A DNA stretch of 64,000 bases, taken from Pristiophorus japonicus. Taxonomy: Eukaryota. The notes below the pieces were generated by a model. The model was not told the origin of the DNA, did no database searches, and saw only the letters and a list, made by a program, of their open reading frames with translations. Location: assembly GCF_044704955.1 (NCBI RefSeq), contig NC_091987.1:68820001-68884000 (forward strand), read 5' to 3'. How positions within the stretch are numbered: the stretch's first letter is position 1; the number at the start of each line of letters is the position of its first letter. Shown in pieces: positions 9,412-60,580 of the stretch. Both the position numbers and the translations under genes were made by a program.

Positions 9412-9662
9412 GTTCTTCTCTTCAGGAAGCGATTTGTTCAAATGATGCCCTATTCTACTTTATATTTTTCTACCCTTTTCCGATTTTTGGAGTCCTCCTT
9501 ATTGCCATTTTACTAACACGTTATAAGACCCTTAACTCGCAGAAGAAATCTGATGGTAAAAATGGCGTTCCATTACTCTGGATCAAAGAACCAGCGGTGA
9601 CTTATTCTCCAACAAGCCTTGAGCCACCGGATTTCAGAATAGGACCAGGAAGCCTTGCTTAA
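9412..9662 (+). CDS. IGSF3: IGSF3 terminal coding exon (stalk, transmembrane helix, cytoplasmic tail)
   Basis: Acceptor tttctttcctacag, phase 1. Encodes SSLQEAICSNDALFYFIFFYPFPIFGVLLIAILLTRYK..KSDGKNGVPLLWIKEP..YSPTSLEPP*, closely matching the mammalian IGSF3 C-terminus as I recall it (ICSNDALFYFVFFYPFPIFG..DGKNGVPLLWIKEP). Stop TAA at 9660-9662. Confidence 0.93.
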
Positions 9663-12600
9663 CAGAGGAAGGGGGGAAATTATTTTGGAGAAAATATAAC
9701 TGACATTCAACTGAAGGGGTCAAAGTTATAATGAATTAAGGATGAATATTAACCCCCAAAAATCCAAGTTTGGAAGTAATATTCTCCACCTCTTATATTA
9801 AGAATGTACATTGAGGGTTATGGCATTGAAATATGGGGTAGAGTGTGTGCATTTATTCCAAGTTGTTTGGCTCAATTGACCTCCTCCCCATTACCCCCAA
9901 CACAATTACTTGATATAGTTGGAATGTTTAATTTTACACTAATGTAGATAAATAGTCTTCTGCCAACTGTTTTCACTGCATGAGAGTTCTGCTTGTCACA
10001 TTAGTCCGCTATGTGTAATAGTCTGATCTCATTAAAATGCCAGATGATCTCCCGAATGTTAAGACTATTGTCACTCCTGATGTACAGAACTGTAGCAAAT
10101 GCAGTACCGTGGAGGGAAAATATTGAACTGTAATGATGTAAAATGGAAGTGCTTTTTTTTTCCTGAAGCTTCATGACACTTGATTGCCCCAATGCTTGGT
10201 TAAACAAATATACAAAGAGTCAACACTAAATCGAAGGGACGTCATGACTGGAGGGATGAACATACACCCAGACCTTCTATTCAATCACAGCACTGCTTAG
10301 AATATATGAACAACAGAAACAATAAAAGGGGAGTGGGAAGATCATGGAAGCCGAGGAGAAGCTGTAGCACCGAAGGCTCAGACGTTGTCAAGCAAATTCA
10401 GTGTTTGACAAGTTTCAAATGACTATGCCAAGTGCAATAGAAAAGCCACGATCATCATCAATCCTATGACTGCATTGTGACAGAATTACATGAAGACGAT
10501 GTTTCCTGAATACAGGATGTGGGACAATGAAATTCCATCCCTTCTAGTGACTATAGTGAAGGATCAAGCAGATTATAAGCAAGTATAGCCAAGGTTTCTC
10601 ATTTTATGAATTTTTTGATACAGAAATCTGATTAAGCTGCAACTCTGTAGAATGGAAAAGTAGTCATGCAGCTGGATACGTTTTTTTTAATACATTGGTT
10701 TTGCACTTTTTGAAATAACTTTTTATTCTGTGTTTGAACAAAAATCACTATAATTGCCTATTTTGTTTTGATAGTGTTCTTTAAAAGAGTGTCATTTAGT
10801 CAAAGGAAATGGATACAAGCCTGAACCAATCCAGTGCCCAAACAGGTTCAATGTGCTAACAGAATCCTGGGCTTTGCTACAAGCCTGTTCAGCCTAAATC
10901 ACATTGTCTCAGCTTAAATATCTTTGAGAATTTTCAAACATTCATTCATATTCTGTTCGAAAACAAATCCATTTGTATTTACTAAACCACTCTTAAAATC
11001 TTAATTATCTAATGTATGAAGTACACAGTTAAGATATGATGTAGGTGGGATTGAATTATCCATGACATTTTTTAGGGGTTTTGCACTGAAGCAAAAATGA
11101 CTATTTCATTGGACCATACTCTCAAAAATCACAATAAATTCCACAGGATGAGGAAAAAAATCACTGATATTTGTGTGGGAAAAGAGAAGTGGCCTTGGAA
11201 AGGGGAAAGTCAGAAGTGCAAGTGGTCTTGTCGAGACAGCATCACTATCATGGGGACAGAGCAGTATGTAAGATGGTAAGTAGGAAGATTCTACAGTCGG
11301 AAACTTTTTATCCCAACACTGACTGGCTAACCAAACTGGCTGGATCTCCCCGCATAGGCTGGTTTATTAGTTTTCATGTTGAATTAATATTATTTCATGC
11401 AGCACAAGATTTGAATTGATAGGTGATTAGTTACCCAAGTATTTGATCTAACAGGGATGTTCTCCGAGCTGTTCACATAAATCCCACTGCACAACCTGAT
11501 CAGAATAGAATCAACTATTTTCTTAATAAAGATGCTCTCATCCAGAAAATGCTCCTGTACTACCACGTACAATGCATGTATAATGAACCCTGCACCAACA
11601 ACACAGGTCTCATAGACATAGGTCCATTGTAAGCTACTGCATCCTTGATCTAGCAGTTCTAACTTTCACACTATTGTTACAGTTCCAGGCTGCAAGAACA
11701 CAGCAGCTTCAGGTTCTGGTAAGATTCTGATAATACCTTTATCTTCCGATCAGAAATGTTACATTTAAAGATGGCCAATGATGGCTTCAGGCAGTATTTT
11801 GTTGCATTTACTGTCTTTTTGCAGTATTTTAAAAGCACAGGAGAGTCATAATAACAGCTTTGGGTAATGATCTGGTCTGGGATTCCTTTGAAATGTGCAT
11901 TTAGACTTTGTTTACATGTCGGAGTTTTTGCATGAGGTGGCACAGTATATCAGTCTGAATTCAGTCACAGGATTCATCATCAGACTATGTATTTAGCCCA
12001 AGGATCCTTCATGTGAGTGTGTGACCAGTGGAACACAATGTCCTCATTAGCCAGAGCAGCAATGGGAGAATGGGCTTCTGACTTCACTGTATATTCATAT
12101 AGTATATCTGTGTACATCCATCAGTGGAGAACGTAAATTAGCTGTGGGCTCAAAGCTAAGGTCAGTTGATGACTTTGTGCCACTTGGACTCTACTGCGTA
12201 GCCCTACACATACTGTATGCTTTACCATTACCAAATGAAGTGACCAATTTAAATCCAAAGCCTGCAGGACGATTGGTTCGATTATGTTATTCCCTCACAA
12301 CTTCAGAGAGTTGTTGTACCCTAACCTCTGCACCATGCATCCTCGTCTTCATAATTAGATCAACATTTATCAAAAATCTTTGATTTTCGTCTCATAAAAC
12401 TCCCCTAAGCAGTTACTGCCTCTGAATTTGTTGTTTCTGGTGCTGGACCAGCTAGACAGCTTTGATGAATCATTTCATTGAGCTTGAACATCTTGTACAT
12501 TTATGTTGGCGAGTACGGCACTGACTTGGGTAACTATTAATCATTCAAAAAGGGGTAAAGAAGAAAACTTGGGTTACAGTGTGCAGCAAAGATGCATTTT

Positions 12601-14339
12601 AGAGAGAGTTGGTAAATCAATACAATTTAATGCAGCTAAGATTCTCAAATGTAGGTGGGAGAATTGGGAGGTCACCCTGCCTATTGAACAGTCTGATCCT
12701 TTTAAACTCCATTGTAAAATCGGTTCTAGGAATAAAGCTTAAGCAGTTTTTCTCATTATAAAAGGGAAATGGAATGTAACAATCTCTACAAAGGCATAGA
12801 ACTTAAAATGATAAATTCGTAATCAAATAAGGTAAGTGTCTGAGCTTGAGTGTCTTTAAGGTTAAAGGCTATTCCTAGCTTCTTCTGTAGTAGGAGTGCG
12901 CAATTATATTTTTGTGGCATTCATTAGGCAAAGAAAAAGGATCTAGCTGAGACTCTCAACAATTCTGCAAAAGAGCAATACAGTGACATGTATTAATTAA
13001 AACCAATGTAAAGCTGAGTCCAGAAATGAAAGAACATTGTTCTCAAACCAATTCAATCAGGTAACAAGAATAGGGCAGGAAATGGGAGGCAGAAATTTAG
13101 TTGATGAAAAAGCTTGTATATATTCAATCCACTGAAACACTTGGCGGTACCAAGAAAAAGTACTAGAGGTCTGGATTCAAATGTCAGTATTGGTGCACTC
13201 TATGCTTGTGAGATTATTGGGTGAAAAATGTCACTGGATGCTTTTGTACACTGTTTTAATTCTGAATCGGGTGCAGGTTCAACTTTGGATAATGTTGTCT
13301 CTATCAGTGGATCAAGGAAACAAACTGACTTCACCAGTATAACGTGTAGAGTTGCCAAGCAGTGTGAAATGGCATCAGTGCTATTTATGAACTGCAGCAA
13401 TTGGCACCATAAAAGCCTTGAATGAGCAAAGGAGCAATATGGGTATTTGACATTTAAGTCTTGGCTGAGTAAGCCGAGAAAGGCATAACCGGTTCTGTGC
13501 TGGCCTTTACAAGCTAAAAGGTTATATTGCAACTTCAAAAAGCAAATTGTAATTGGGTGTCATGTGGAGCTTCAGCAAATGCACATTCTACTTTACAGAC
13601 TGGCTTGAATAATTTGAGTAGAAATGTGAAAGGATCAATTTTTAAAAGTTGGTGTTTGGGGCTTCATTGCACACTGTAGGAAAATCCTATAGTCAGCATT
13701 ATTGTGGCAATGGTAGTCACACAAGCATACTCTTTCATAATTAAATGAAGGTATAATGACATGAAATAGTGTACACTATTATCCCCATAACCTGCAGGGA
13801 AACTGATAATGAAGCACAAATTGCAGATGCTGCAAATTTCCAAGAGTGGGAAAAATTGGCATATTTTGTAAATTTTCCCTATCTACTTTTGCAAAAAGGA
13901 GCTTTTAAAAAAAAATGGAAATATAGACAGATGTACATTATTTATTCAAAAAGGTTCTGTAAATAGAAAACAAATCAGAAATTCTTGTTTGGACCAATGA
14001 GTATGGCCAAAAGGGGAATTCAAAATATAGCATGTGATAGAAATGTTGTCCACACAATATAAATCCAGGACTAAATGTTTTCCTCCCAATCCCCCAAAAT
14101 TAAAAAATATTCTCTATTAAGGGAACAGCTCATACATTCTCACCATACTCCTCCTCTTAAAAATCATGCATTTAAATTGGAGAGTGAGTAGTTTACATCT
14201 CAATTTTTTAAAGATATGCACAATACAGAATTACAATGCAAGTATCGGTGAAGAGAGATTGATGATCCAAAGACATTGCACACTCGAGTTATTCTAAAGC
14301 CCTGCTGATTATTTTTCCTTGTATGTTAACTTCCTATAT

Positions 14340-14690
14340 TCCTTCCATCACACCTAAAGATGCTGAATCTTGTTGGAGTACAATTTCATGGACAGCCCTC
14401 CAGTACTTCACCCCATCCAAGTGGCTAGTCTTTAAGTCTGACCCTAGATGGTGATTTCCAATAGGCTATCTGATTGTAAATGCCATAAGATTACGTTCTC
14501 ATTGTAAAGTTCACATGCATTTCCCAACCTGAGCCACTCTGGCTATTTTTTCCCTCTGGGTCAGGGTCTCTGGATCCAATTGTAGTACCCAACTGCTTCT
14601 CTTAGTGATCAGCTATTTCAGTACACACCAGTAATCGAACCTAGGATCTTTCTTCTCTAGTTAATCTGAGATATAGTTCACTTACCACCT
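14340..14690 (-). mobile_element. LF-SINE-like ancient SINE remnant
   Basis: Reverse complement resembles the LF-SINE-like copies at 28780-29060 and 56495-56745; tRNA B-box-like ggttcgattac on the minus strand. Confidence 0.5.
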
Positions 14691-14707
14691 GAGGGAAGCT
14701 GTCTCGT

Positions 14708-15050
14708 TCATAGTATCATAGAGCACAGAAGGAGGCCATTTGGCCCATCGTGCCGGTGTTGGCTCTTTGAAAGTACTATTGAATTCGCCCCATTACCCTG
14801 CCATTTCCCCATAGCCCTGCAAATCTTTCCTTTTCAAGTATATATCCAATTCACTTTTGAAAGTTACTTTAGAATCTGCTTCCACCACCCTTTTAGGCAG
14901 TACATTCCAGAATATAACAACAGCAGCATTAAAAAAATTCTCAGCTCCCCTCTAGTTCTTTTGCCAATTATCTTAAATCTGTGTCCTCTGTTTACCTCCT
15001 GCCAGTGGAAACCGTTTTTAATTATTTATCCAATCAAAACCCTTCATTTT
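14708..15050 (-). mobile_element. Old CR1 3' fragment
   Basis: catagtatcatagagcacagaaggaggccatttggccc tail, followed by typical CR1 3' ORF2 antisense sequence. Confidence 0.65.
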
Positions 15051-17520
15051 AAATGTTACATACATTTAGGAGGGGTGTGGAGGGAGGGTAGACATGTCAA
15101 ATGAACTGATTGAGAGATTTTAGGTGTTTGCTAAAGTTACAATCAGCTCATTCAAACTAACGTGATTCCACAGTGTGTCCAAATTTCTTTCTGGCCAAAA
15201 TCAAGTGTGCTTGCTAGATAGAATGAAAAAGAGCCATTCAAATGGTATTTATACCTTTGAATCCACTTTATTATAAGGTATTTTTAACTGATTCCTCAAT
15301 CTCCCTGTTCTCGCGTCGTCGATCATTCTGGAATACAACCTGAGGGATTAGCCGGAGTCTGTTCAACTGGAGCGAATCTCACTTTAATCCTCTCCCTTCA
15401 TCTTTTTGCAAATTTGAATTTCAAATAGGGAATCAGTTACATGTTAAAATCCATGTAAAATAATAATTAACTGCTTCCTTATTAAAGTTAGTCAAATTTA
15501 AATTAAACAACTTGACATGTATTGAAAGAAGATACCTCAAATATATATTTTAGTGTTAGTTACCTATGGTAGTAAATGTGTTATTTTATATACTTAAATA
15601 AAACTGCGCTTTTTTATCTGCTTATTAGGGTGCATTTAAAATTTAATGATCAAACGATATTTTGTTGGTGTACATATTTTTGCTGAAGGCTAAATAACAC
15701 AAGTGAACATGAACTGTTACAGCATTTTAGTATAATTTACAATATAGCTTAGTTTTCAATTCTTATTTTTTTGCCCTGAACACTACATGTGCTAAAGTTG
15801 AACAGTCACTAGAGGGGGCAGTTATGAATCTGATCTAGAATAACATGAATTATCCATACCATTTGTAATCAGATCTGGGTGTAAAAATGGGTTTGAAACA
15901 AAATTAAATAAATCACATAGTTTTTTGGGGCTTTTTTAAAAAAAACTTTCAGTTCCCAAAATTAAAGTTTCCAAATATATATCAATTATATCTGGCTGAT
16001 CACCATATGTGAGGCTGTCTTATGCAATTCCATTTGCAAGTGTTACAATTCCACAAAAAGATTTCAATATCAGCCTGTAACCGCTGGTGAATAGGACAAG
16101 TTGATCAGTGTAATACCAGCTAGCTATTGTACTTTCAAAAACAGTTGCTTCACTCACGAGCTCTTGGACCTGTTCCTTAAAGTGCTGTTGAGCAGAACTT
16201 GTAGTGAATTTAGTTGGTTATTGCACATGGAGCAACCCATTCCACTCCCCAAATAGCAAAGCACCTTTCTCCAAACTCCCTCAGTGGTCAGGTGGTTGAT
16301 CAGAACATCAGAGATTAAATTTTCATCTTCACCACGGGACGGTAATCTGGTGGAGTGGAATGCCCCCCACCATTATAGAACCCATCAACGGAATGAAATT
16401 CAGGTGGGTATACATTGGGCAGGTGATCAGCTCCATCAGATTACCGCCCATGTGAATACTGTGAATATGAAAATTTACCCCATAGTTTCAGGACAGGGAA
16501 AACTGAAATTCTGTCCTGTGTTGAAACAATAGTGTAATTAGAAGTGCAATGAACTAATTTCACCAAACACAACTACATTGATCATTATAAATGTAGCCAC
16601 ACAGTTACATATGGGTTGTGGATTTACAAAGACAGAACAATCATTGCAGCTGAATGATCATTTGTCACTAAAACTGGATCGACTGTACTTCAGATGGTCA
16701 GGTATTGGCACTCTAGCTTCTCCAGTGTTGTAACTTCTAGCTTATAATGTAGCTAAAAATGTGTCCTTGAAGAAAGTGTTGTGCATTAATTTTAATTCAT
16801 TCTGCTTCATTCAGAATTTCTCAAAGCTTTGTAAGGTTGCCAGATGAACAGTCTAATTTTGTGCCAGTCTTTGGTACATTGACATCAAATCATTTGATTA
16901 ATTTGGTAAATCTGTATTGACTTCACCCAACAAAATTGTTGCACTTTGTAACTATAGTGATGATATTTTCTCAAAATGATTTTAAGGAGTCTATTGGTGG
17001 AAGTGTTATACAGAAAGAGGCCCTTCTGCTTTGAAGTCTTATTGCTAACTGGGAAAATTGTTGTGAGGTGAATGTATAACATGCTTTACAATATTACAAT
17101 TAACTAAAGAATAAAAATGTCACACCACCAGTCTGATGCATGAGCTTCTTGCTGGGCAGGCATTTCTTTCATCATGTCTGGCTACACAGTTGACCTGATT
17201 TTAAATTTGACATTGTGAGGTGGGAGCCTTTACTCCAAACCATGATCACAGTAAACAATTCCATACTGTTTGCACTGTAATATTTACGTGACAGTAATCT
17301 AAAATTTCTGTAATAAATGGACACTTCAATTGGAGCATAAACATAACTTAAGGTGTTGGGATACTCCCAGTTTCTCATTGTTTGGACGGATGTCCTATTT
17401 TAGGTATTTTCTATGTATCAATAGTGCATGATACTGCAGAATTTCATTTGTGATGAGTGTTTTCATGTAAATTTTAAAATGTGATGTGCTTTGTTTGAAA
17501 TCTCTTGTCATTTTGTTGTT

Positions 17521-17526
17521 AATAAA
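17521..17526 (+). terminator. Candidate distal polyadenylation signal
   Basis: AATAAA with U-rich upstream sequence and tctttgtgtt downstream, at the UTR/TE boundary. Confidence 0.55.
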
Positions 17527-17679
17527 ATGATGGGTCTTGAAAAGATCTTTGTGTTCCAGGCCAGTACTTGGACCAGACTGCTGTGATTATGAACCTTTCA
17601 ATTTTTTTCTTCAAATCCTGCTGGGATGGTTCATGGGCACTAGCTGCTCTGTTTTCTCACTCAAATGGTCATTCTCCTT

Positions 17680-18085
17680 GTACACAGCAAGGGTCAACAA
17701 ATAGCAAAGAGATAAATGACCAGATAATGTCTTTTGGTGGTGTCCATTCTTTTGGTGGTGTCAGTTGAGGGATAAATGTTGATCAGGATACTGGAAGAAC
17801 TTTACCGACATGGACACAATGGGCCTAATGGCTTCCTTCTGTGTCGTAATTTTTCTATGATTCTATAACTCTGGTCTTCTTCAACTAGTGCCACGGGATC
17901 TTTTATGTCCACCTGAGAGAGCAGATAGGGCCTCCGTTTAACATCATCTGGAAGCTGGCATCTCGGACAGTGCAGCACTCCTGCAGTATGGCACTAAAGT
18001 GTCAAGTCGAGAAATTTGTGCTTAAATCTCTTAAATGGGGTTTGAACCCCTAACTTCTGACTCATAAGAGTGCTGCTACTGACAT
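17680..18085 (-). mobile_element. SacSINE1/Deu-domain-type SINE, interrupted by a short CR1 tail (~17807-17866)
   Basis: gagggataaat..ccagga, agtgcca.gggatctttta.gtccacctgaga, gacagtgcagcact blocks shared with 49921-50330. Confidence 0.65.
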
Positions 18086-18299
18086 CTACAAGAGGTCTGA
18101 GAGAGGTTTACATCTGCCCTCTGCAGGGAAGATGAGGTTAAAATCATTACCATAGTAGTAGCTTTAGGCAAAAGGCCTTTGGTCCATCTTGTCCACCTAT
18201 CCACAGAATTCCTTTGGTGCATTTTAATAACCTTGAATCCCATTTGTTAACACAAAGCTGTTTACTTGCTTCTTGAAACTGATTAAGATTTTGTTTTTA

Positions 18300-19150
18300 A
18301 TTCATTCACAGGAAATGGGCATCACTGGCAAATCAGGTATTTACTGCCCATTCTTAGTTGCTGTTGAGAAGGTGTTGGTGGGCCTTCTTGAACTGCTGCA
18401 GCCCTTGTGGTAAAGATATTCCTTCAATGCAGTTGAGTAGGGATTTCCAGGAATTTGACCCAGCAGTGATGAAGGAACGGCGATATATGTCCAAATCTGA
18501 ATTGTGTGTGACTTGGAGGTGATGATGTTCCCATGCATCTACTGTCCTTGTCCATCTAGGTGGTGGAGAACACTGGTTTAGGAGGTGGTGATGAAGAAGT
18601 CTTGGTAGCTTGCTGCTGATATTACACAACCAGCAACTGTATGCTGCTGATGGTGGAGGAGGTGAATGCTTAATTTGGTGAATGGGATGCTGATCATATG
18701 AACTATTTTGTCTTGGATGGTGTCGAGCTTCTTGAATGTTGTTGCAGTTTCACCCATCCAGGCAAATGGACAGTATACCATCAATATACTCCTGACTCAT
18801 GCCATTTAGGGAACAGAGAGGCGTTGGATAGTCGGATGAGCCATTTGTTGCAAAATACCCAGCTTCTGACCTGTTCTAATAGTGACTGCATTTATGTGGC
18901 TGGGCCAGTTGAGTCTCTGGTTAATGGTGACCCCCAGGAAGTTCATGGTGGGGGATTCGGTGATGGTAATGCCATTGAAAGTCAATGGGTTAGATTTCCC
19001 TTGGAGATGGTCATTACCTGCCACTTGTGTGGCACAAAAGTTAGTTGCCACTTATCAGCCCAAGCTTGGATGTTGTTCCAGTCTTGCTGCATTTGGGCAT
19101 AAACTGCTTCATTATTTGAGGAATTGCAAATTGAGCTGAGCACTTTGCCA
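18300..19150 (-). mobile_element. HER1-like non-LTR retrotransposon 3' fragment
   Basis: Minus frames FLGVTINQRLNWPSHIN..QKLGIL and MVYCPFAWM..KKLDTIQDK; HE1/HER1-like tail; frameshifted. Confidence 0.7.
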
Positions 19151-19164
19151 AAAAAGTGGTAAAC

Positions 19165-21719
19165 ATGCCAAAAAACCCTCCTATTTAGGAGTCATGCTTG
19201 ATCGCACCCTGGCATATAGACAACATCTCCAGAACCTTGGGAAGAAACAAAAGAGTAGGCTCAACTTGATCCAGAAACTCACCGTATCCACATGGGGAAC
19301 AGACACTCAAACCCTCTGTATGGCAGCACTCGCCCTGGTGTACTCTACAGCGGAGTACTGCTCTCTGGCTTGGTTATCAAGTCCACGTCAAATCCGTTGA
19401 TGTCCAGCTGAATTCTACAATAAGAATTATTACCGATACCGGACTTGAACAACCTACTACCAACCCGTCTCAAATCTAGAAGGCCATTTTGGACCGTCAC
19501 CGAAGCCCTTCAACGATCTGTCCTCAGCCTTGCTGATCAATGGCGAAATGCTTAGAAGAACTGCGACATACGGAATGGATTCCTTATAGAGGAGCCCAGT
19601 ACAACCTGTAGGATCAAATCTTCGCAAACAATGGACAACCATCACCCACCTCAGAAACATAGAAAATAGGTGCAGGAGTAGCCCATTCGGCCCTTCGAGC
19701 CTGCACCACCATTCAATATGATCATGGCTGATCATACAACTTCAGTACACCTTTCCTGCTTTCTCTCCATACCCCTTGATCCCTTTAGCAGTAAGGGCCA
19801 CATCTAACTCCCTTTTGAATGTATCTGACGAACTGGCCTCAACAACTTTCTATGGTAGAGAATTCTGAGTGAAGAAGTTTCTCTTCATCTTGGTCCTAAA
19901 TGGCTTACCCCTTATCCTTAGACTGTGACCCCTGGTTCCGGATTTCCCCAACATCGGGGAACATTCTTCCTGCATCTAACCTGTCCAATCCCGTCAGAAT
20001 GTTGTAAGTTTCTATGAGATCCCCTCTCATTCTTCTAAATTCCAGCGAATATAAGCCTAGTTGATCCAGTCTTTCTTCATATGTCAGTCCTGCCATCCCG
20101 GGAATCAGTCTGGTGAACCCTCGCTTCACTCCCTCAATAGAAAGAATGTCCTTCAGATTAGGAGACCAAAACTGTACACAATATTCAAGGTGTGGCCTCA
20201 CCAAGGCCCTGAACAACTGCAGTAAGACCTCCCTGCTCCTATACTCAAATCCTCTTGTTATGAAGGCCAACATGCCATTCGCCTTCTTCACCGCCTGCTG
20301 TACCTGCATGCCTACTTTCAATGACTGATGTACCATGACACCCAGGTCTCATTGTATCTCCTCTTTTCCTAATCTGTCACCATTCAGATAATATTCTGCA
20401 TTCCTGTTTTTGCCACCAAAGTGGATAACCTCACATTTATCTACATTATACTGCATCTGCCCACTCACCTAACCTGTCCAAGTCACCCTGCAGCCTCTTA
20501 GCATCCTCCTCACAGTTCACACTGCCACCCAGCTTAGTGTCATCTGCAAACTTGGAGATATTACATTTAATTCCTTCATCTAAATCATTAATATATATTG
20601 TAAATAGCTGGGGTCCCAGCACTGAACCTTGCAGTACCCCACTAGCCACTGCCTGCCATTCTGAAAAGGACCTGTTTATTCCTACTCTTTGCATCCTGTC
20701 TGCCAGCCAGTTCTCTATCCACGTCACTACATTACACCCAATACCATGTGCTTTAATTTTGCACACTAATCTCTTGTGTGGGACCTTGTCAAAAGCCCTT
20801 TGAAAGTCCAAATACACCACATCCACTGTTTCTCCCTTATCCACTCTACTAGTTACATCGTCAACAAATTCTAGAAGATTTGTCAAGCATGATTTCCCTT
20901 TCATAAATCCATGCTGACTTGGACCGATCCTGTTACTGCTTTCCAAATGCACTGCTATTACATCTTTAATAATTGATTCCAACATTTTCCCCACTACCGA
21001 TATCAGGCTAACCGGTCTATAATTCCCTGTTTTCTCTCTTCCCTCTTTTAAAAAGTGGGGTTACATTAGCTACCCTCCAATCCATAGGAACTGATCCAGA
21101 GTCTATAGAATGTAGGAAAATGACTATTTCTAGGGCCATTTCCTTAAGTACTCTGGGATGCAGACTATCAGGCCCTGGGGATTTATCGGCCTTCAATCCC
21201 ATCAATTTCCCTAACACAATTTCCTTACTAATAAGGACTTCCTTCAGTTCCTCCTGCTCCCTAGACCCTCGGTCCCCTAGTATTTCCGGAAGGTTATTTG
21301 TGTCTTCCTTAGTGAAGACAGAACCAAAGTATTTGTTCAATTGGTCTGCTATTTCTTTGTTCCCCATTATAAATTCACCTGATTCTGACTGCAAGGGACC
21401 TACGTTTGTCTTCACTAATCTTTTTCACTTCACATATCTATAGAAGCTTTTGCAGTCAGTTTTTATGTTCCCTGCAAGCTTACTGGTCATGGTAGGCACT
21501 GCCGCCTTATCCATAAATGGAAGATTAAAGCATCGGCATCATGCGACTGTGGGGCTCCTAATCAGACCCTGAAGCACATCATTGAGCACTGCCCTCAGAG
21601 GAAATTCGCAGGCAGCCTACAAGATATCCATGCTGTTACACCAGAAGCTTTGGCCTGGATATCCAACTTAGATATTGACATTTGATTTGCTTTGCTACTG
21701 CCATACGAAAGAAGAAGAT
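19165..21719 (+). mobile_element. RTE-X/I-like LINE 3' fragment split by a CR1 insertion
   Basis: YLGVMLDRTLAYRQH..KL..STWG..ALALVYSTAEYC (19180-19390). QWTTITHLR (to ~19655) resumes as TGHGR..CDCGAPNQTLKHIIEHCP (from 21482). (GAA)n tail. Confidence 0.75.
19653..21484 (-). mobile_element. CR1 LINE, 5'-truncated, frameshifted ORF2
   Basis: QHGFMKGKSCLTNL, YLDFQRAFDKVPH, QGSVLGP, FADD, RPHLEYCVQFWSP; (CATAGAAA) tail. Confidence 0.95.
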
Positions 21720-22732
21720 CATCAGCGAGTAGCCCCTCTTCTGACGGTTTTCAGTGTGAAACTGGTGTAAATCAATTCGGTGCAAATTTCCTCGGGGGAC
21801 AAAAACGGTGCTACTCAGCTCTTATGTTGCAGTTATGGGGAAACCTTCCGGGGAATTCCAGGACATTGAATTAAATAAAAGAATGGAATTGTTTTGAGAC
21901 TGTAAAAAGCAGTAAATATTATCACTTACAAATCTTCAGTTCAATTTGAGTAATGGAAATTCAAATTGTTTTCACTTTCCACAAACCTGCTCATTTTGCT
22001 TTATGTTGGTGATTTGTAAAAGTCATCTAGGCAATCCCTCGGAGTCGAGGATACTTTCACTTGTAATAAGGACTGTCACTTCAGAATAGCAGAAGAGTAT
22101 CAAAAGAATTATCTAGACAGGATGCCTGCTGTTACTGCTTAAACCCTCTTTAAAGCTCAAGCTCCCCTCCATATTCTTTTCTATGAAAGCCTATTTTGCA
22201 ATTGTATAAAAAAGCAGGAGACTCTGGTTTGAGTACACAGTTTAATAATCTATTCATACTGAGGGAAATTAAAGTATATTAATTGTTCCGCCTGTGAAAA
22301 TACTTGTCTAGTTAATTTAAATTAGCAGCTTAATAGTTTACTTTCATTATGATTTTGTAGGAGAGGGTTCAAAATCAATATAATTTAATATATCCAGTGT
22401 TTAGTATGGGAGAGGATAGCAATACTCTCTCTGCTTACATCGCTGACTATAAATGAGAGCTTAAACCGGCTTTCATTCTTTTCTAGTTGCTTGCTCAAGA
22501 ATAGCAGTAGCAGAGATCTGGGAGCGAGGTGAGTTGGAAACTTACTCACTGCTCCAGAAATGAGATCCAGTCTATTTTAACTCCCAGGCCCCATTTAAAG
22601 GATGCGTTTATTTGTACTGCCAAAATGACCACCATGCTCCACCCTTTTTCTATGATTGGTTCCCTTGGAGTGTAAGCCACACCCTGAAGTTTCACAGGAA
22701 TGTGTAACTGGAACCGTCCATCCTAAGGTCTA

Positions 22733-29060: not shown

Positions 29061-29134
29061 GCTTTCAAGAGAAACTTGACAATTTCTAATAAAAAGTGGT
29101 AGAGTGGCAGTATAAAACTTGGGACTAACTATTT

Positions 29135-38906: not shown

Positions 38907-39009
38907 ATAGAATTTACAGCACAGAAACAGACCATTCAGCCCAGCTGGTCCATGCCGATGTTTATGCTCCACGTGAGCCTCCTCCCACCCTACGGACCTG
39001 AGGAGCGGC

Positions 39010-46272: not shown

Positions 46273-47391
46273 ATTAAGTACCAGGCCATGACACAGGCCT
46301 AGATCCCCAGGTGAGCACAACTTGTGATATTGGACGAGCTGGAACGCCTGCTCCAAGCCAAGTGTACTGGCCTGCCAATGTTCTCACGAGGCCAGGGAAA
46401 TGTGTACTCCTGTATGGGAGTCCCTGTCCCCGACCACTCCCACTCTTACACCGCAAGCCTTGTTGGTGGTGAGCAGAGGCTCTGCCCCCAGAAAGGCTCT
46501 GTAGAAACGGCCATGTCTGGGTCCTGGTCCTCAGAGCAGAGTTTGGATCTCGGCCAAAGTTACTGTGGAGTGCGCCCAAACAGCCATGGATTTTTGGCAC
46601 CAATGTTTGCAAAAGCTTCCTAGACCGGCACCATTATTTCTGCAATATAATTTTCAACATATAGTATATATACTGCAAGGAAACTATTGTTTTATAAACA
46701 ATACTTTATTCCACAAGAACCAGTTTACAAAGGAGAATAGTTTCATTACATAGCAACTTTTCATGTTACGAAGCAATCTGAGGAACTTGCAGTCCGCACG
46801 TTATTTTTAAATTACCAGCAGGAGTAACATTACAATTGAAATGTTAATGTGTGAGTGCTTTGATTAAATATTAATGAAGTATACATTTGCAAAATAAAGA
46901 TGCAAACACAGCACCTATACAGCAGCTTTTTGTATATAATACCATTGATGACCTCAGTGAATCAAAGCAGAAGCATGAGTGCAATGAACATTAAAAGCAG
47001 GAACAGGGGGACTTCTTTTTTCTTTTGCTCAGCCTATGTTTCATATTTATCTCTGTTGCTGGCCAGATGAAGTCACACTAAAGCTCAGTATATTTTAAAC
47101 TGTCTAGCTCACTACTGAATAATGTCCTGAATTCTTCCACAGGCAAAACAGTTATTCATATGATTCACACTCCTCACAATTAGTTCATTGATTGAGGGAA
47201 AAGATACACAATGTAATCCTTGTAGTGGTGTGGCTAAGCTACCTGCTTTGTAGGCCTGTGGTTATGAATTTAAGTCATGACACTGTCTGATGACTTCTGT
47301 AACCAGTCATGAAGAGCTTTATTTGAAGTTGACTAGTCTGCTACATGGGTTATCTCACTGCTGCTCTGTAGCAGACAGTGGGAGGAGAGTA

Positions 47392-50330: not shown

Positions 50331-50536
50331 AGAAGAGGTAGAGGAGAGATTAGTGTCTTGCTTGGGAGTAAATTGCCTCAGCACAGATTGTGGTGAAGTG
50401 CTTGCTCCAGCTGCAGAATATATTATGATGGCGAGAGTGCCTGAGAGAAAAAAACGAGGAAAATATTAGCAAGATGTATTTTTAGCTTGTGTTCACCATT
50501 GTCCTGCATGTAACCAGATCATTTCTTTCCTCACAG

Positions 50537-50944
50537 ATAGCAGATTAAAAGTCAACCAAATAAAAAGGAACCTTATAGTAATTGAAAATGACAATATTCA
50601 TTTAAACTGTACCATCACAAATCGAACAAGTCCAGACTCGCAATTCTCTGTACAATGGTATGTTCAGAAATCACTGGAGAAAGAGAACAAACTTATCCTG
50701 AAATCAAACCGTGACTGTGTGTTGGAGTATGGAAACTGGTTAGGAAGAGACAAAAGGAGGGAGAGACTGCAGGCTGCACAACCTTCGCGTGGGCACTACA
50801 CTTTGGTCTTACAAAAAGCCGATATTGATGATAGTGGAAAATACTATTGTTACGTGGAGGAGTGGCTGGTGAACCCCAACAATGTTTGGTATAAAGTTGG
50901 AGAGAACATGTCTGGACTGACCACTGTCACAGTCCAGCCTCCAG
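50537..50944 (+). CDS. EWI-family (IGSF3-like) Ig V-type domain exon, phase 1-1
   Basis: tttctttcctcacag|..|gtattg; 408 bp open. DSRLKVNQ..IHLNCTITNRTSPDSQFSVQWY..DSGKYYCYVEEWLVNPNNVWYK..SGLTTVTVQPP resembles IGSF3 membrane-proximal domains (~6/7). Confidence 0.9.
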
Positions 50945-51909
50945 GTATTGAATCTATCTTTGTTTCTTTCATGTATAGAATAAACTTTCAATTCTTGCAT
51001 GCTTATGAAGAACTCTCTGTGGAGTGGCGGCAAGCTGCCTCATTAGAAGGAGGGGAGGGTAAATCTGAGCACGAGCCATTGCTGGCTGCTCTCATGTACC
51101 TCTCTTGATAACTGCATTGGCAGAGGGCTATGTCCTCCTCTTGGTCAGGGAATGGTACAGAAGTTTAAAAAGAGGTATGACTCGTATTGAAAAGTGAACA
51201 GAGTGGGGACTGAACGACTTGCTCTGTGATATCTGATGATCAGTGTCAACCATCTGAACAAAAGCAACTTCTACTTTTTTTAAAACTCAGGACCAAAAGA
51301 GAGTGATATTTTACAGATTCTCTTCCCTGACAGACCAATCTACCTACCTATATATTAAAGTCTAATTTATTAACATTTTCCAAGGATTCGATGCTCGCAT
51401 TATATGCAATGTAAGTGCATTTGTGATATGCTACAAATTCTGCATTCGACCCTGGTGCTGGCTATCATTTCCATGGCTATAAACTAGAAGATGGAACTGA
51501 TGTGAGCATTTGCCACTTTTGATTTGTTTGACATTTTGCTGACTGGCTCCATGGAATGATTCAGCTTCAAGGTAAGTGCACGAACATCTTTATTTTATAA
51601 GTGTTTCTTAACTCTTTCCTCCCACAAAGCCAGCAATCTAATGTGTAAACTGGTCATGCTGTATATGACGTTAGTGCTGCAGAGAGGGAGGAGAACAAGG
51701 TGGAAACACACAAAAGAAACAAACTCACCCTGCTCTTTACTAAGAGCCTCCCATTACAGCCTCAGCACCAACTCCCCAATAGTTCAGGTGTTAGCGGAAG
51801 AGAATTATCTGGGCTTCAGTTATTGTCACAGTCACAATTTTCTGGCTCCAGCTGTGTCATAGCTGCAGAATCAAAACCCACTTGCATTGCTTCACCAATG
51901 CAAGTTTCA

Positions 51910-53886
51910 CCAGGAGTTATACAAAGTTGCCAGAAAAAGTAGCAAACTTCAGGATTGGGAGCAGTTTAGAATTCAGCAAAAAAGGACCAAGAGATTAATT
52001 AAGAGGGGAAAAATAGAGTATGAGAGTAAACTTGCAAGGAACATAAAAACTGACTGCCAAAGTTTCTACAACTATGTAAAAAGAAAAAGATTGGTGAAGA
52101 CAAATGTAGGTCCTTTACAGACAGAAACGGGAGAATTTATAATGGGGAACAAGGAAATGGCAGAACAATTAAATAAATACTTTGGTTCTGTCTTCATGGA
52201 AGAGGACACAAATAACATCCCAGAAATGCTAGGGAACCAAGGGTCTAGTGAACAAGAGGAATTAAAGGAAATGATAAGTAGTAAGAAAATAGTGCTGGAG
52301 AAACTAATGGGACTGAAGGCAGATAAATCCCCAGGGCCTGATGATCTGCATCCCAGAGTACTAAGAGGTAGCCATGGAAATAGTAGATGCATTGGTTGTC
52401 ATGTTCCAAAATTCTATAGATTATGGAACAGTTTCTGCAGATTAGAGGATGGCAAATGTAACTCCACTATTTAAAAAAGGAGGGAGAGAGAAAATGGGGA
52501 ACTACAGACCGGTTAGCCTGACATCAGTAGTAGGGAAAATGCTGGAGTCTATTATAAAGGATGTGATAATGGCACATTTAGATAATATCAACAGGATTAA
52601 ACAAAGTCAACATGGATTTATGAAAGGAAAATCATGTTTGACAAACCTGTTGGAGTTTTTTGACGATGTAACTGATAGAATAGATAAGGGATAACCAGTG
52701 GATGTAGTGTATTTGGATTTTCAGAAGGCCTTTGATAAAGTCCTACATAAGAGGTTAGTTTGCAAAATTAAAGCACATAGGATTGGGGGTAATGTATTGG
52801 CATGGTTTGAAAATTGGTTAACTGACAGGAAACAGAGAGTAGAAATAAACGGGTCTTTTTCAGTGTGGTGGGCAGTGACTAGTGGGGTACCACAGGGTTC
52901 AGTGCTTGGGCCCCAACTATTCACAATATATATACATGATTTGGATGAGGGAACCAAATGTAATATTTCCAAGTTTGCTGACAACACAAAACTAGGTGGG
53001 ATTGTGAGTTGTGAGGAGGATGCAAAGACGCTGCAAAGCGATTTTAGATATGTTGAGTGAATGGGCAAACACATGGCAGATGCAGTATGACGTGGTTAAA
53101 TGTGAAGTTATCCACTTTGGTAGGAAAAACATAAGGACATAGTATTATTTAAATGGTGATGGCTTGGGAAGTGTTGATGTACAGAGGGACCTGGATGTCC
53201 TTGTACACCAATCATTGAAAGCAAACATGCAGGTGCAGCAAGCAGTTAGGAAGGCAAATGGTATGTTGGCCTTCATTGCAAGATGATTTGAGTACAGGAG
53301 AGCAAGGATGTCTTACTACAGTTATGCAGGGCCTTGGTGAGATCACACCTGGAGTATTGTGTGCAGTTTTGGTCTTCTTACCTAAGAAAGGATATATTTG
53401 CCATAGAGGGAGTGCAGCGAAGGTTCACCAGACTGATTCCTGGGATGGCAGGATTGTCGTATGAGGAGAGATTGGGTCGACTAGGCCTGTATTCACTAGA
53501 GTTTAGAAGAATGAGAGGGTATTTCATTGCAACATATAACATTCTGACTGGGTTGGATAGACTGGATGCGGGGAGGATGTTTCCCCTGGCTGGGAAGTCT
53601 AGAACAAAGGGTCACAGTCTCAGGATACGAGGTAGGAAATTTAGGACCAAGATGAGGAGAAATGTTTTCACTCTGAAGGTAGCGAATCTGTGGAATTCTC
53701 TACCATAGAAGTCACTGAATATATTTAAGAGGGAGATAGATAGATTTCTAGAAACAAAAGGCATCAAGTGATATGGGGAAAAAGCGGGAATATGGTGTTG
53801 AGATAGAGGATCAGCCATGATCATATTGAATGGCGGTGCAGACTCGAATGGTCGAATGGCCTACTACTGCTCCTATGTTTCTATGT
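51910..53886 (+). mobile_element. CR1 LINE, 5'-truncated
   Basis: KSPGPD, NYRPVSLTS, FDKV, PQGSVLGP, HLEYCVQFW; (TTTCTATG) tail. Confidence 0.95.
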
Positions 53887-54724
53887 TTTTAAACTGAGAA
53901 AGTTGAACATCAATTCCCTCTGGCATGTTATTGGCTCCAACTCCAACCACTTCTGCTTCGTGCTCTGCAAAGCAGAACAAGTGCCGTTCTTATTCTATGT
54001 AGCCTTGCACTGCTCGTTGACAGAACCCAAAGTTTACAAGGATTTCTGGAAAAAGAAATCAAACAACTTTTTTCCCCAGACTCCATAAAGCAAAAAAGAC
54101 CAATTTCTTTAGAGTAAGGGTTTCACTGCCAGTGTCCCACACTCTTCAACTGGTTTTCCAGTTATTTCACTGAGAGATCAAGAAACAGAGATAAACTAAT
54201 TAAATAAACAGTTATGCTACAGCACATCTACTAATTTATTCAGAAGCATTCTATTTCACAACAACAAATATAAGGGGCGTCTGAAGTCTACACTGGGTGC
54301 ACCCTGATCCTGGAAGTCACTGAATAAGGAGGTGTACCAAGTGTTTAACTGAAGGATTAACAAATTAGCATTTACAAAGGTCACAGTGAGGGTCATTAAT
54401 CCCATTCTCAAATATGAATTAATGTGTTTGAACTGCATGTTTGCATTCTAAAATGTAAATGCACCATAGTTATAATCGATTTAATAAAGCAGGATGTCAT
54501 GGAAATCAATAGAAGATCATTTACCCGGGTTCGCAAACTGGCAACCCATATTTTGATGCTCGAAAGAGACGATATTGGGAAGACTGTTCATATTCTCAGT
54601 CACGTACATGTGTCAGTATTCACATCCTTTGAAAAGAAAATCAAAGTGTAAAGGCTCAATTGATAAAAGCAACTTGAAATTGAACCAAAAAGGTCCCTGT
54701 TTTAATCCTTGATCTCTCCTGTGT

Positions 54725-55984
54725 CATAAGAACATAAGAATTAGGAACAGGAGTAGGCCATCTAGCCCCTTGAGCCTGCTCCGCCATTCAACAAGATCAT
54801 GGCTGATCTGGCCGTGGACTCAGCTCCACTTACCCGCCCGCTCCCTGTAACCCTTAATTCCCTTATTGGTTAAAAATCTTATCTATCTGTGACTTGAATA
54901 CATTCAATGAGCTAGCCTCAACTGCTTCCTTGGGCAGAGAATTCCACAGATTCACAACCCTCTGGGAGAAGAAATTCCTTCTCAACTCGGTTTTAAATTG
55001 GCTCCCCCGTATTTTGAGGCTGTGCCCCCTAGTTCTAGTCTCCACTACCAGTGGAAACAACCTCTCTGCCTCGATCTTGTCTATCCCTTTCATTATTTTA
55101 AATGTTTCTATAAGATCACCCCTCATCCTTCTGAACTCCAACGAGTAAAGACCCAGTCTACTCAATCTATCATCATAAGGTAACCCCCTCATCTCCAGAA
55201 TCAGCCTAGTGAATCGTCTCTGTACCCCTCCAGAGCCAGTATATCCTTCCTTAAGTAAGGTGACCAAAACTGCACACAGTACTCCAGGTGTGGCCTCACC
55301 AATACCCTATACAGTTGCAGAAGGACATCCCTGCTTTTGTACTCCATTCCTCTCGCAATGAAGGCCAACATTCCATTCGCCTTTCTGATTACCTACTGCA
55401 TCTGCAAACTAACTTTTTGGGATTCATGCACAAGGACCCCCAGGTCCCTCTGCACCTCAGCATGTTGTAATTTCTCCCCATTCAAATAATATTCCCTTTT
55501 ACTGTTTTTTTCCCCAAGGTGGATGACCTCACACTTTCCGACATTGTATTCCATCTGTCAAACCTTAGCCCATTCGCTTAACCTATCCAAATCTCTTTGC
55601 AGCCTCTCTGTGTCCTCTACACAACCCGCTTTCCCACTAATCTTTGTGTCATATTCAAATTTTGTTACACTACACTCTGTCCCCTCTTCCAGGTGATCTA
55701 TGTATATTGTAAACAGTTGTGGTCCCAGCACCGATCCCTGTGGCACACCACTAACCACCGATTTCCAACCCAAAAAGGATCCATTTATCCCGACTCTCTG
55801 CTTTCTGTTCGCCAGCCAATTCTCGATCCATGCTAATACATTTCCTCTGACTCCGCATATCTTTATCTTCTGCAGTAACCTTTTGTGTGGCACCTTATCG
55901 AATGCCTTTTGGAAATCTAAATACACCACATCCATCGGTACACCTCTATCCACCATGCTCGTTATATCCTCAAATAATTCCAGT
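54725..55984 (-). mobile_element. CR1 LINE, same subfamily as 33806-34813
   Basis: Near-identical 3' ORF2 (GLPYDDRLSRLGLYSLE..KIEAERLFP) and tail. Confidence 0.95.
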
Positions 55985-56494
55985 CAATTACAAACATACA
56001 AAAATGACAGAAAGAAAACATAGTTGGTCCATCAAACCTGTCTGATATAGTTGTGATGTGCATCACGATACAGACACTTACTATCAACTTAGAGCCAGGT
56101 AATCTCCTCGGAGGGATGAAAAGCCAGATAAAAACCTAGGCCAATTCAGGAAGAATCTGGAAAATTCCTCTCCAGCCCCTTTAGGCGATCAAAACCAGTC
56201 CAGGAGATTACATTGACCCTGATTTATATCACAGGGTAGCTACCTCTTGTATAAAGTGATCTCCACCTTAGCTAGAAGCAGGTCCAGCTCTCACTTGAAG
56301 GTATACAGGGAATCAGCATTCACTGCACAATCTAGACCTTTCATTATTTTATAAATCTCAATCAAATTGCCCAAGTTGACGCTTCGCTAAAGTATATAGT
56401 CCCAGTTCTTTGAGATTATCTGGGTAGCGAAGGTGTTTTAAACTGAGAATCAAATCAATTGGCCTAAGCCAGAACAACAGTTATGTGCTATATC

Positions 56495-56745
56495 TTCAGC
56501 ACTCCTGGGCTGGGGAAGGGGAAAATGAGCTGGAGTTCCTATTCCTGACTGATGTCTAATGACCCCTGCTGCAAGTGTGGATATCAGGTGAGGACATGAT
56601 CAGGCTCACCTGTGACACCTCCACTGGTGACTAGGCTTACACAGGAGGAATGCTCACTTGGGCAAGATACTGGCAGGCAAGATATTGATGCCCACAAAAC
56701 AGTGTCCAAGAACAAGCCAATAAATACCCTCAGGAATCTAGGGTA
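56495..56745 (+). mobile_element. LF-SINE-like remnant
   Basis: gacccctgctg..ggtgaggaca.gatcaggctc..tgtga..ctaggcttacac..gaatg..cacttgggcaagatactgg resembles the LF-SINE body. Confidence 0.55.
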
Positions 56746-58285
56746 GAAAATGACTGCAGGAATGAGGGAATTTGGTCATCCTTCTATGCTACTTTGCCGC
56801 CTTATTTCAGAGATTTTGTCTCAATAGGTGAAGCCAATTACCAATGTCTGAAAACTGGCTGACCCAAGAGTTACTGTGCCTTACCTGAACTATCATATAC
56901 AGTTCAAATGACAACATTCTTGAAGTGTCTTGAATTGAACACCTTATTTCAACATAAATTAATTCAACTGTAAGGCTCATTGATTCCTCCCAGACAAATC
57001 CCTCAATAATACTATATCAGCATCAATTAGAATTTAAACAAACATATTCAAATAAGGTAAACTGAACCAACAAGAAAAAACCCTTTCAATTATTTTGCTT
57101 GAAATAGGTATGGAAAATTGTTAGGCATTATCCATAATTATAATTATCACAAGGATACAAATAGCAAGGTCTTGGGTAGGGGTAATGCTTCCTTTGCATG
57201 TTTAAAAAATGAATGTATAAAAATTGTTACTCTTCCCAACTTGTTAAACTGTAAAGGGTAAACAGAAGACTATCTTTTAACACACGTTAAAGCTGACAAT
57301 TAGGAGGCCCTCTTAAAGTAAGTGTAGGGGGAATACTTTCAATACATAAAATGTAAAATATTGTTGGAAAATATCCTACAATTTTTAAGAGACATTAAGG
57401 CCCTTTACTTTTCATGTTGCTGTTGATGGCAGTCCTAATTTCTGCTGCAAAGCTGTAATATAAATAAGTGGTTTTATATGCCATTTTTTCCAGCCACAAG
57501 TGCATTCAGTCCACCCGTATAGACCAGTGATACGGGTTTTACATTGTCAGTGTGTTTCTGCATTCAGTTATTTGACTGTTGCTGCTAGTGCTATGGTAAT
57601 AGCCCACAATGTAAATGGCATGGATTCCACAGCACACGGTGCTCCAGCACATTACAGAACCACATCTACTTAAACCAAGTTTGAATTCTAAAGAGGTCAT
57701 CAGTGTTGCAATATAATTAGTTCCATTGATATTTCCTTTCCTGGTAACCAATTAACAAATCTAAGGCTGTACTCATCTAGCACTGCTGAACCAGAGGCCT
57801 TCTGAGCAATGTCTAGGACAGGAGCTCAAGCTGATCTCCATGGTTCCTTTCCTATGGAGCTGTCATTATCTGGATAGCTCCTTGACGAAAGTAGACACTC
57901 TTCAGAATATTCTTCAGTTTCTCGACCTTTAGATTGTATCAGCATCTAATGTCACTCTTGTCCAGCCCATTATGACATCTAGCCATGTTCTTTGCCTCTC
58001 ACTTGATCTATTACCTGCAACTTTTTCAAACAGTAACCTGTACATCATTTTCTCATCACCTCAAAATGAGTTATTTCTTTTGAGACCATCTTATTTCTTA
58101 CTCTTATTGTTCAACTTGTTTTCGACAAGCGTCAATAGCGTGCACACAGACACTGCTAGAAATCATTTTTCTCTGAGTGGCCAGTAGTGTTTTTCCAACT
58201 ATTTCTGCTTTTATTGCACTAAATGTTCACATTTGATGCATATAAATTTAAAGGCTCAAGCTATTTTCCCATGTGTTTACATAAT

Positions 58286-60021
58286 CATAAGAACATAAGA
58301 GATAAGAAATAGGAGCAGGACTCAGCCATTTGGCCCCTCGAGCCTGTTCCGCCATTCAATAAGATCATGGCTGATCTGATCATGGACTCAGCTCCACTTC
58401 CCTGCCTGCTCCCCATAACCCTTTACTCACTTATCGCTCAAAAATCTGTCTATCTCCACCTTAAATATATTCAATGACCCAGCCACCACAGCTCTCTGGG
58501 GCAGAGAATTCCATAGATTTATAATCCTCAGAGATGAAATTTCTCATCTCAGTTTTAAATGGCTGGCCCCTTATTCTAAGACTATGCCCTCTAGTTTTAG
58601 TTTGCACTATGAGTGGAAATATCCTCTCTGCATCCACCTTGTTGAGCCCCCTCATTATCCTATAAGGTTCAATAAGATCACCTCTCATTCTTCTGAACTC
58701 CAATGTGTATAGGGTCAACCTAATGAACCTTCTCTGAATAGCCTCCACTGCAAGTATATCCTGCCTTAAATACGGAGACCAAAACTGTACGCAGTACTCC
58801 AGGTGTGGCCTCACCAATATCCTGTACAGTTGTAGCAGGACTTCTCTGCTTCTATACTCTATCTCCATTGCAATAAAGGCCAACATTCCATTTGCCTTCC
58901 TCATTACTAACTTTTTGTGTTTCATGCACAAGGACCCCCAGGTCCCTCTGTACTGCAACACTTTGCAATTTTTCTCCATTTAAATTATAATTTGCTTTTC
59001 TATTATTTCTGCCAAAGTGGATAACCTCACATTTTCCCACATTATACTCCATCTGCCAAATTTTTGCCCACACACTTAGCCTGTCTATATCCCTTTGCAT
59101 ATTCTCTGTATCCTTACAATTTGCTTTCCCATCCATCTTTGTATCATCAGCAAACTTGGCTACATTACACTCGATCCCTTCATCCAAGTCATTAATATAG
59201 ATTGTAAATAGTTGAGGACCCAACATCGATCCCTGCGGCACCCCACTAGTCACTGTTTGCCAACCGGAAAATTACCCATTTATCCCGACTATCTGTTTTC
59301 TGTTAGTAAGCCAATCCTCTATCCATGTATCTATTATATATTACCCCCAATCCCGTGAGCTTTTATCTTGTGCAGTAACATCTTATATGGCACCTTATTG
59401 AATGCCTTCTGGAAATTCAAATACACCACATCCACTGGTTCTCCCTTATCCACCCTGCTCATTACATCCTCAAAGAACTCCAGTAAATTTGTCAAACATG
59501 ATTTCCCTTTCATAAAACCATGATGACTCTGCTTGATTGGATCAAGCTTTTCCAAATGTCCCGCTACTGCTTCCTTAATAATGGACTCCAGCATTTTCCC
59601 AACCACAAATGTTAGGCTAACTGGTCTATAGTTTCATGCTTTTTGTCTGCCTCCTTTTTTAAATAGGGGCATTATATTTGCGGTTTTCCAATCCGCTGGA
59701 ACCGCCCCAGAATCCAGGGAATTTTGGTAGATTACAACCAATGCATCCACTATCTCTTCTGCCACTTCTGTTAAGACCCTATGATGTAAGCCATCAGGTC
59801 CAGGGGACTTGTCCGCCTTTAATCCCATTATTTTACCTAATACTACATCATTAGTGATCGTGATAGTATATCAGTATATGGTATATAAGTTCCACCCTCC
59901 CTATAGCCCCTTGATTATCCACTATTGGGATGTTTTTAGTGTCTTCTACCATGAAGACCGATATAAAATATTTGTGCAACGTCGCTGCCATTTCCCTGTT
60001 CTCCATTATTCATTCCCCAGT
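58286..60021 (-). mobile_element. CR1 LINE, same subfamily as 47461-49918
   Basis: RT motifs on the minus strand; (CATAAGAA) tail. Confidence 0.95.
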
Positions 60022-60169
60022 TTTGTTAACATTGTCAAGTTAATACATTTGAATAGATTATCTGATGAATAAATCTGTTGGGGAGTTTTGAAACTATGCT
60101 TCTATGATATTAAAATTCCTTGGCTGTCAAGTTTCCTTTAAATAAAATTAAAAACATGTGTATCTACAG

Positions 60170-60580
60170 AAAACAATTTACAAACCGTCAAAACTGAGAA
60201 GAGTATTGCAGTGCCAGAGGACAGCCAGATTCAGCTGGATTGCAAGATCAGCAACCGAACCAACCTGGATTCCCAACTCTCTGTGGCCTGGTATACCCGG
60301 AGAATACTGGAGACAGACAGACATCCCATTCTCAGCCTGAACCGGAATTCTGTTTTTGAGTACGGCAGCTCAGTGGATAACAGTGTGAGCCTGAGGGATA
60401 GGCTATGGTTTGAAAAATCTACCGATGAACATTATAGTTTGATACTACAGAAAGCAACTACATCTGACACTGGCAGTTACTACTGTTGTGTAGAAGAGTG
60501 GTTACTTGGCCCCAATAATGTATGGTATAAACTGGGAGAGGATCAGTCTGGACTGACTACTGTCACTGTACAACAACCAG
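60170..60580 (+). CDS. EWI-family (IGSF3-like) Ig V-type domain exon, phase 1-1
   Basis: tatctacag|..|gtatgg; 411 bp open. ENNLQTVK..IQLDCKISNRTNLDSQLSVAWY..DTGSYYCCVEEWLLGPNNVWYKLGEDQSGLTTVTVQQP. Confidence 0.9.

Follow-up and report, generated by a model that had tools for sequence, protein, structure and literature searches.

Copies of the IGSF3 Ig6 and Ig7 exons beyond the last exon of the gene in Pristiophorus japonicus: probably a recent headless partial duplicate

In a 64,000-nucleotide stretch of the genome of the shark Pristiophorus japonicus (NCBI RefSeq assembly GCF_044704955.1, contig NC_091987.1, positions 68,820,001 to 68,884,000 of the forward strand; hereafter the window), two immunoglobulin (Ig) exons of IGSF3 type lie downstream of the exon that encodes the transmembrane (TM) segment and stop codon of IGSF3. 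What are these exons, and does the shark use them? An earlier note on this DNA proposed a cassette of extra Ig domains serving as an alternative-last-exon system, and named a headless partial duplicate and a misassembly as alternatives. The analysis below favours the first of these alternatives: the two exons are probably a real and recent duplicate, lacking the head of the gene, of a segment running from intron 5 to beyond Ig7, located past the poly(A) site and outside the main mRNA.

The Ig exons and the order of the IGSF3 mRNA

The exons at 9412-9662, 50537-50944 and 60170-60580 are on the plus strand, with AG/GT ends, phase 1 and stop-free Ig frames, as the earlier note had described. Both Ig exons score above the Pfam V-set cut-off (47.1 and 35.4 bits versus 26) and are therefore not chance frames. 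They are 49% identical to each other, and in both E-W-L is read after the second cysteine, an EWI-like motif; the accessible part of a study of IGSF3 treats the EWI motif as a mark of the family (10.1101/2023.10.16.562470).

We compared the three exons with the complete, eight-Ig IGSF3 isoform X1 of P. japonicus (UniRef100_UPI00398F64AB; P0156), found by cluster look-up, and with the 1170-residue IGSF3 of Heptranchias perlo (XP_067849045.1; P0004). The exon at 9412-9662 (AG acceptor, 82 codons, TM segment, cytoplasmic tail, TAA stop) is the last coding exon of IGSF3 (aa 1088-1170). It agrees with P0156 at 82/82 residues (100% over aa 1089-1170) and with the Heptranchias protein at 97.6%. The exon at 50537-50944 (408 nt, intact, phase 1/1) corresponds to Ig6 (aa 674-809), with 135/135 residues identical to P0156 (100% over aa 675-809) and 89.6-89.7% identity to P0004 (89.7% in the domain mapping). 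The exon at 60170-60580 (411 nt, open frame) corresponds to Ig7 (aa 810-946), with 132/136 residues identical to P0156 (97% over aa 811-946) and 90.5% identity to P0004. Both lengths are divisible by 3, and a 9.2-kb intron separates the two exons, so that introns were kept. Each of the three exons matches one specific IGSF3 domain together with its exon boundaries, and its identity to the remaining domains of P0004 is about 49% or lower. With the 50537 peptide as query, 48 of 157 candidate proteins were recovered, chondrichthyan IGSF3 ranking first. Judged by sequence, the Ig exons are thus copies of the internal exons Ig6 and Ig7 of IGSF3 and not new domains; extra, diverged Ig domains are ruled out by the 97-100% identity. 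The window shares with cartilaginous-fish IGSF3 (EWI-3) the Ig6, Ig7 and TM exons, their boundaries at aa 674, 810, 946 and 1088, and the canonical mRNA order described below. It differs in that Ig6 and Ig7 follow the TM exon and that Ig7 carries 4 residue differences from P0156. The Ig exons owe their intact splice sites and phase-1 compatibility to the parent exons, and neither feature indicates function.

To place the exons in the mRNA, contigs from four P. japonicus sequencing runs were compared with window positions 8700-25880 and 44501-64000. Two runs (X1 and X3) are DNA-like and possibly the assembly's own source. The kind of the other two (X5 and X23) is unrecorded, and they were taken as cDNA because their contigs stop at splice sites. 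A 2250-nt X23 record (depth 30.6, minus strand) places its nucleotides 1-1349 on 9410-10758, the TM exon and untranslated region (UTR), with 0 differences, and its nucleotides 1771-2184 on 60167-60580, the Ig7 exon. The unplaced middle measures 423 nt, or 141 codons, which is the length of Ig8 (aa 947-1087). The final 66-69 nt of the record explain, judging from depth, the coverage seen where Ig6 ends, the piece itself not being among those listed. From this layout and the end depth at Ig6, the mRNA order is Ig6-Ig7-Ig8-TM-UTR, the canonical one, and the exon at 9412-9662 is the expressed copy, as far as tested. The proposed cassette is not supported: its exons copy Ig6 and Ig7, the X23 contig has Ig7 upstream of the TM exon and carries Ig7 alleles other than those of the window, and no splice past the TM exon was seen in the contigs. 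A 3897-nt X5 record begins at the TM acceptor and extends 2632 nt upstream unbroken. No X5 record was placed on either Ig exon, though the X5 index contains 0.40 of the words of 50400-51100; such holes prove nothing. The joint and loose-end tables of the contig placements are dominated by repeats and show no exon junction directly.

Downstream of the TM exon, the UTR that the earlier note considered probable is transcribed to about 17506. It forms a long 3' UTR of about 7.9 kb (9663-17540, plus strand, end approximate), covered in pieces by X23 and X5 contigs ending at 17506 and 17505, and an AATAAA poly(A) signal at 17521-17526 (plus strand) closes the gene. Since the gene ends at 17.5 kb and no promoter or leader was found for the copy, the protein made would be an ordinary eight-Ig IGSF3. 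The UTR is AT-rich (GC 0.37), with repeat-level high depth only near 14.4-15.0 kb and at the far end. Within it, at 15106-15146, the X1 and X3 DNA contigs carry about 27 bp, set between 7-bp inverted repeats, in reverse complement, which makes this a micro-inversion polymorphism; the X23 and X5 contigs break at 15140 and carry the window form.

The window holds no further Ig exons by tblastn and by a 12-mer scan of P0156 against all six frames. The latter scan turned up neither a leader nor any of the exons for Ig1-5 and Ig8 within it (background 6-7 of 12; best leader or Ig1-5 match 7/12), and the sole Ig8 12-mer signals fall on the Ig6 and Ig7 exons. Among 101 other stop-free frames of at least 80 aa (outside 9.4-17.5 kb and before 46.3 kb), Pfam detected retroelement domains only. 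This agrees with the earlier note, which found no N-terminal Ig exons in 17.5-50.5 kb.

Evidence bearing on a second genomic copy

The X23, X1 and X3 contigs all differ from the window at three Ig7 positions, 60295, 60406 and 60424, and 3/3 of these differences change the residue. The residues in the reads (A, R and N) are those of P0156 and Heptranchias. Among chondrichthyan orthologues, the window's W and D occur in 0/23 each and its T in 5/23; all three differences are derived on the window side. RNA editing is ruled out as their cause, since the same three letters are present in the DNA contigs. At a fourth site (codon 60487-60489) the window, X1 and X23 encode C and P0156 encodes S. There are therefore three Ig7 versions: T-W-D-C in the window, A-R-N-S in the annotated protein and A-R-N-C in the reads (X1 and X23). 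If these came from one animal, which is not established, they would exceed one diploid locus. The 132/136 match further means that the Ig7 of the annotated protein is not encoded by the 60170 exon.

About 72% of random changes in the exon would be non-synonymous, giving P(3/3 non-synonymous) = 0.37 under neutrality; for constrained alleles all derived on one side, P is 0.002-0.02 (omega assumed to be 0.1-0.3). The Ig7 differences, all non-synonymous and derived, could reflect relaxed selection in the copy, yet there is no stop or frameshift and Ig6 is unchanged. Relative to the same-species DNA contigs, the Ig region (46251-64000) shows 1.7-3.5 substitutions per kb. The figure for the TM region is 0.6 per kb with the one inversion counted once, and 1.5 per kb uncorrected.

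The DNA contigs are also deeper over the Ig region. Length-weighted depth was 16.1 at 46-64 kb (X1 11.1, X3 5.0) versus 7.8 at 8.7-22.6 kb (X1 3.6, X3 4.2), a ratio of 2.06 with a one-sided P of 0.015-0.076 for one or two independent samples. The count used listed unique DNA contigs (16 and 10 pieces, respectively) and left out four pieces from the 8700-25880 comparison that were at repeats or under 190 bp, plus one repeat record. Per-contig depth in 46251-64000 was 8.2-13.2 for X1 and 4.1-5.5 for X3. Depth is flat within each region, without a gradient away from the GA repeat that precedes the TM exon; a loss of depth near that repeat is not favoured as the cause of the low TM-region values, which are flat over 8.7-18.5 kb. 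P0156, the three Ig7 versions and the depth ratio lend a second genomic copy indirect support, with the parent outside the DNA seen. From the depth, the segment likely to be duplicated covers at least 46251-64000 (plus strand), probably intron 5 to at least intron 7, and extends past the window. The junction between 3' flank and copy must fall in the repeat-rich interval 22626-46250, where depth is low up to 22626 and high from 46251, and where only retroelement domains were found.

The sequence of events would then be as follows. Upstream of the window there are probably intact Ig1-Ig8 exons. The stretch between intron 5 and some point beyond Ig7 was probably duplicated recently, with the new copy placed 5-29 kb beyond the poly(A) signal. 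The event would have been a segmental duplication, either repeat-associated or by template switching, whose junction falls within 22.6-46.2 kb. The copy would begin in intron 5, since no Ig5 exon was carried along, and would end beyond 64000, keeping its introns but not the 5' end of the gene. The TM exon may not be part of it, given the lower TM/UTR depth, itself a weak step; without the TM exon, the event would count as a near-tandem insertion rather than a clean head-to-tail repeat. Lacking a leader and lying behind a terminator that is in use, the copy is likely absent from the main mRNA and likely drifting neutrally.

Several points weigh against a genuine duplicate. The junction itself was not read, and the parent exons lie outside the sequence seen. 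A gap at 6551-6782 separates the presumed parent exons from the copy, one hallmark of false duplication. The excess behind the depth ratio comes mostly from X1 (3.1x; X3 only 1.2x), one sample, and contig depth is no copy number. X1 and X3 are possibly the assembly's source. In both DNA runs, 1.6 kb of Ig6 and flanking sequence, the exon included, is free of substitutions, so that divergence is patchy. The two X23 placements were taken as one record from their equal length, depth and strand and their non-overlapping record coordinates, with no identifier linking them. Finally, a shared origin of P0156 and the window, in one assembly or animal, is inferred.

These points bear on the strongest competing explanation, an assembly artefact in which the second haplotype of a single IGSF3 locus was misjoined after the 3' flank, at a repeat in 22.6-46.2 kb, so that the Ig7 differences would be allelic. 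The near-identity of the copy (0-0.35% substitutions) is within the allelic range, the junction interval is dense in LINE and LTR fragments and minisatellites, an assembly gap lies between presumed parent exons and copy, and per-run contig depth is low, with almost no step in X3. According to the accessible part of one study (PMC9516828), even long-read assemblies still contain false duplications, which give rise to false exon gains. However, the copy does not flank the gap but lies 40 kb away, and the post-gap contig reads TM exon, UTR, flank and then intron 5; an artefact would therefore need an internal misjoin in 22.6-46.2 kb. The assembly-independent contig depth is greater over the copy, the three Ig7 differences are all non-synonymous and derived in the window, and TM/UTR divergence is only 0.6 per kb with the inversion counted once. 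We consider an artefact unlikely, although it deserves to be taken seriously.

As far as the available text of that study (PMC9516828) goes, the locus resembles false, or heterotype, duplications in having two near-identical copies on one scaffold with a gap in between and, if false, an apparent exon gain. In contrast to them, the shark copy does not abut the gap, and contig depth over the copied region is greater, not equal, which is a weak test.

Isoform, paralogue and related gene structures

A functional long or secreted isoform, in which the TM exon is passed over and Ig8 is joined in frame to the copied Ig6-Ig7 cassette, is very improbable. All junctions are phase 1 with intact splice sites, low-level use could go unseen because contigs drop rare forms, and ray-finned fish have annotated EWI proteins with longer ectodomains (P0048, P0190 and P0196, with 9-11 Ig-like stretches). 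However, the intact splice sites reflect recent copying only, and such a transcript must bypass both the TM exon and a used poly(A) site. The X23 contig crosses from Ig8 to the TM exon unbroken and has non-window Ig7 alleles, the X5 contig of 3897 nt continues 2.6 kb upstream of the TM exon unbroken, and the spliced contigs of both runs use the 9412 acceptor and then the UTR. Given how contigs are built, frequent splicing from Ig8 to Ig6 should leave contigs broken where Ig8 ends, while rare forms would be dropped. Nor does any relative show such a form: of 40 chondrichthyan IGSF3 proteins of at least 200 aa (protein models), 32 read Ig5-6-7-8-TM, 1 ends after Ig8 and 7 end after Ig5, with 0/40 having a repeated Ig6-8 or an Ig domain after the TM segment. 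A real duplicate used by minority TM-skipping transcripts, which would be a newborn 10-11-Ig or secreted IGSF3 and domain-array growth at its start, is an equally long shot.

Least probable of all is a separate paralogue, a second gene, IGSF3-like or CD101-like, equipped with a promoter and a short leader of its own. A homology search could miss a new first exon if it were very short. The exons, however, share 97-100% identity with IGSF3 but only 28-35% with marsupial IGSF2, which rules out CD101/IGSF2; the window has no copy of the IGSF3 leader or Ig1-5 (best 12-mer at background); and neither exon peptide has an exact record in the protein collection.

No record of a gene model built on the copy was found by an exhaustive 50%-cluster search, within the best 150 of 261 hits, or by exact look-up, and a near-length protein search with the Ig7 peptide gave 0/6 candidates. 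Among the papers that the literature searches listed, none deals with a shark IGSF3 duplicate, judged by titles and abstract openings. Great apes have partial IGSF3 segmental duplicates, according to the part of PMC12767296 available to us: six internal exons are fused to GGT (IGSF3-GGT), and the human version is a pseudogene. In both cases internal IGSF3 exons were copied without the rest of the gene. By that account, the ape copies are on other chromosomes, fused to GGT, and amplified and transcribed in gorilla, whereas the shark copy adjoins its parent, lacks a partner gene within the window and was not seen in any transcript. The expanded EWI arrays of ray-finned fish (P0048 from Albula, P0190 from Polymixia and P0196 from Chanos; automated models) likewise duplicate symmetric phase-1 Ig units. 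Their extra domains are diverged and lie within one annotated reading frame, whereas the shark copy is near-identical and past the poly(A) site.

As an adhesion protein of the EWI family, IGSF3 is reported to need Ig4-5 for homophilic binding, with Ig6-8 acting as stabilising domains, in the accessible part of the source (10.1101/2023.10.16.562470). In a skate IGSF3 cluster (Logan proteins P0171-P0176 and P0180), 7/14 members are 688 aa long; they lack a TM segment and end in a 15-residue tail that follows Ig5. Going by these predicted proteins, the 688-aa forms are a candidate secreted Ig1-5 isoform that would retain the domains reported for homophilic binding; they are a better alternative-last-exon lead than the window's copy. 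Their short tail has no convincing match in the window. Isoform X2 of Narcine bancroftii (P0009) lacks a TM exon; as annotated, it finishes in a short tail behind Ig8.

Other features of the window and significance of the copy

The gap at 6551-6782, which the earlier note did not mention, consists of 232 N and is the only one in the window. It lies upstream of the TM exon, probably within intron 8 of the intact gene, and is followed by a GA-rich tandem repeat at 6783-7839. The sequence from 17.5 to 50.5 kb is free of N, as the earlier note had observed, and no gap separates the TM exon from the Ig copies. A CpG-rich 23-bp tandem repeat (about 56 copies, GC 0.73) occupies 530-1885, within the presumed last intron. 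At 31975-37502 on the minus strand lies an LTR retroelement with the order RT-RNaseH-integrase and terminal repeats 95% alike over 211 bp, which we take to be Gypsy-like. Nested in it, at 33806-34814, is a LINE fragment with 96% identity to 54725-55731. Two elements in the same orientation, at 6783-8213 and 29509-30800, each combine a GA-rich repeat with a common 109-bp core (82%). The second runs on into a 41-bp minisatellite of about 23 copies. The pair represents an unnamed repeat family and a candidate junction zone. The GA-rich element common to 8105-8213 and 29753-29861 (82%), considered as a substrate for recombination or misjoining, is too diverged to call.

Recent headless gene fragments commonly arise by segmental duplication, and the biological weight of this one is small as it stands. 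Fragment or assembly error, either way the shark makes an ordinary eight-Ig IGSF3. In practical terms, this is a locus where reads multi-map and where Ig7 variants could be mis-called as coding polymorphisms. The matter would grow only if splicing from Ig8 to the Ig6 copy exists. If it does, the extra membrane-proximal Ig domains would alter the reach of IGSF3 and not its specificity, as far as the roles of Ig4-5 and Ig6-8 given in the accessible part of 10.1101/2023.10.16.562470 allow.

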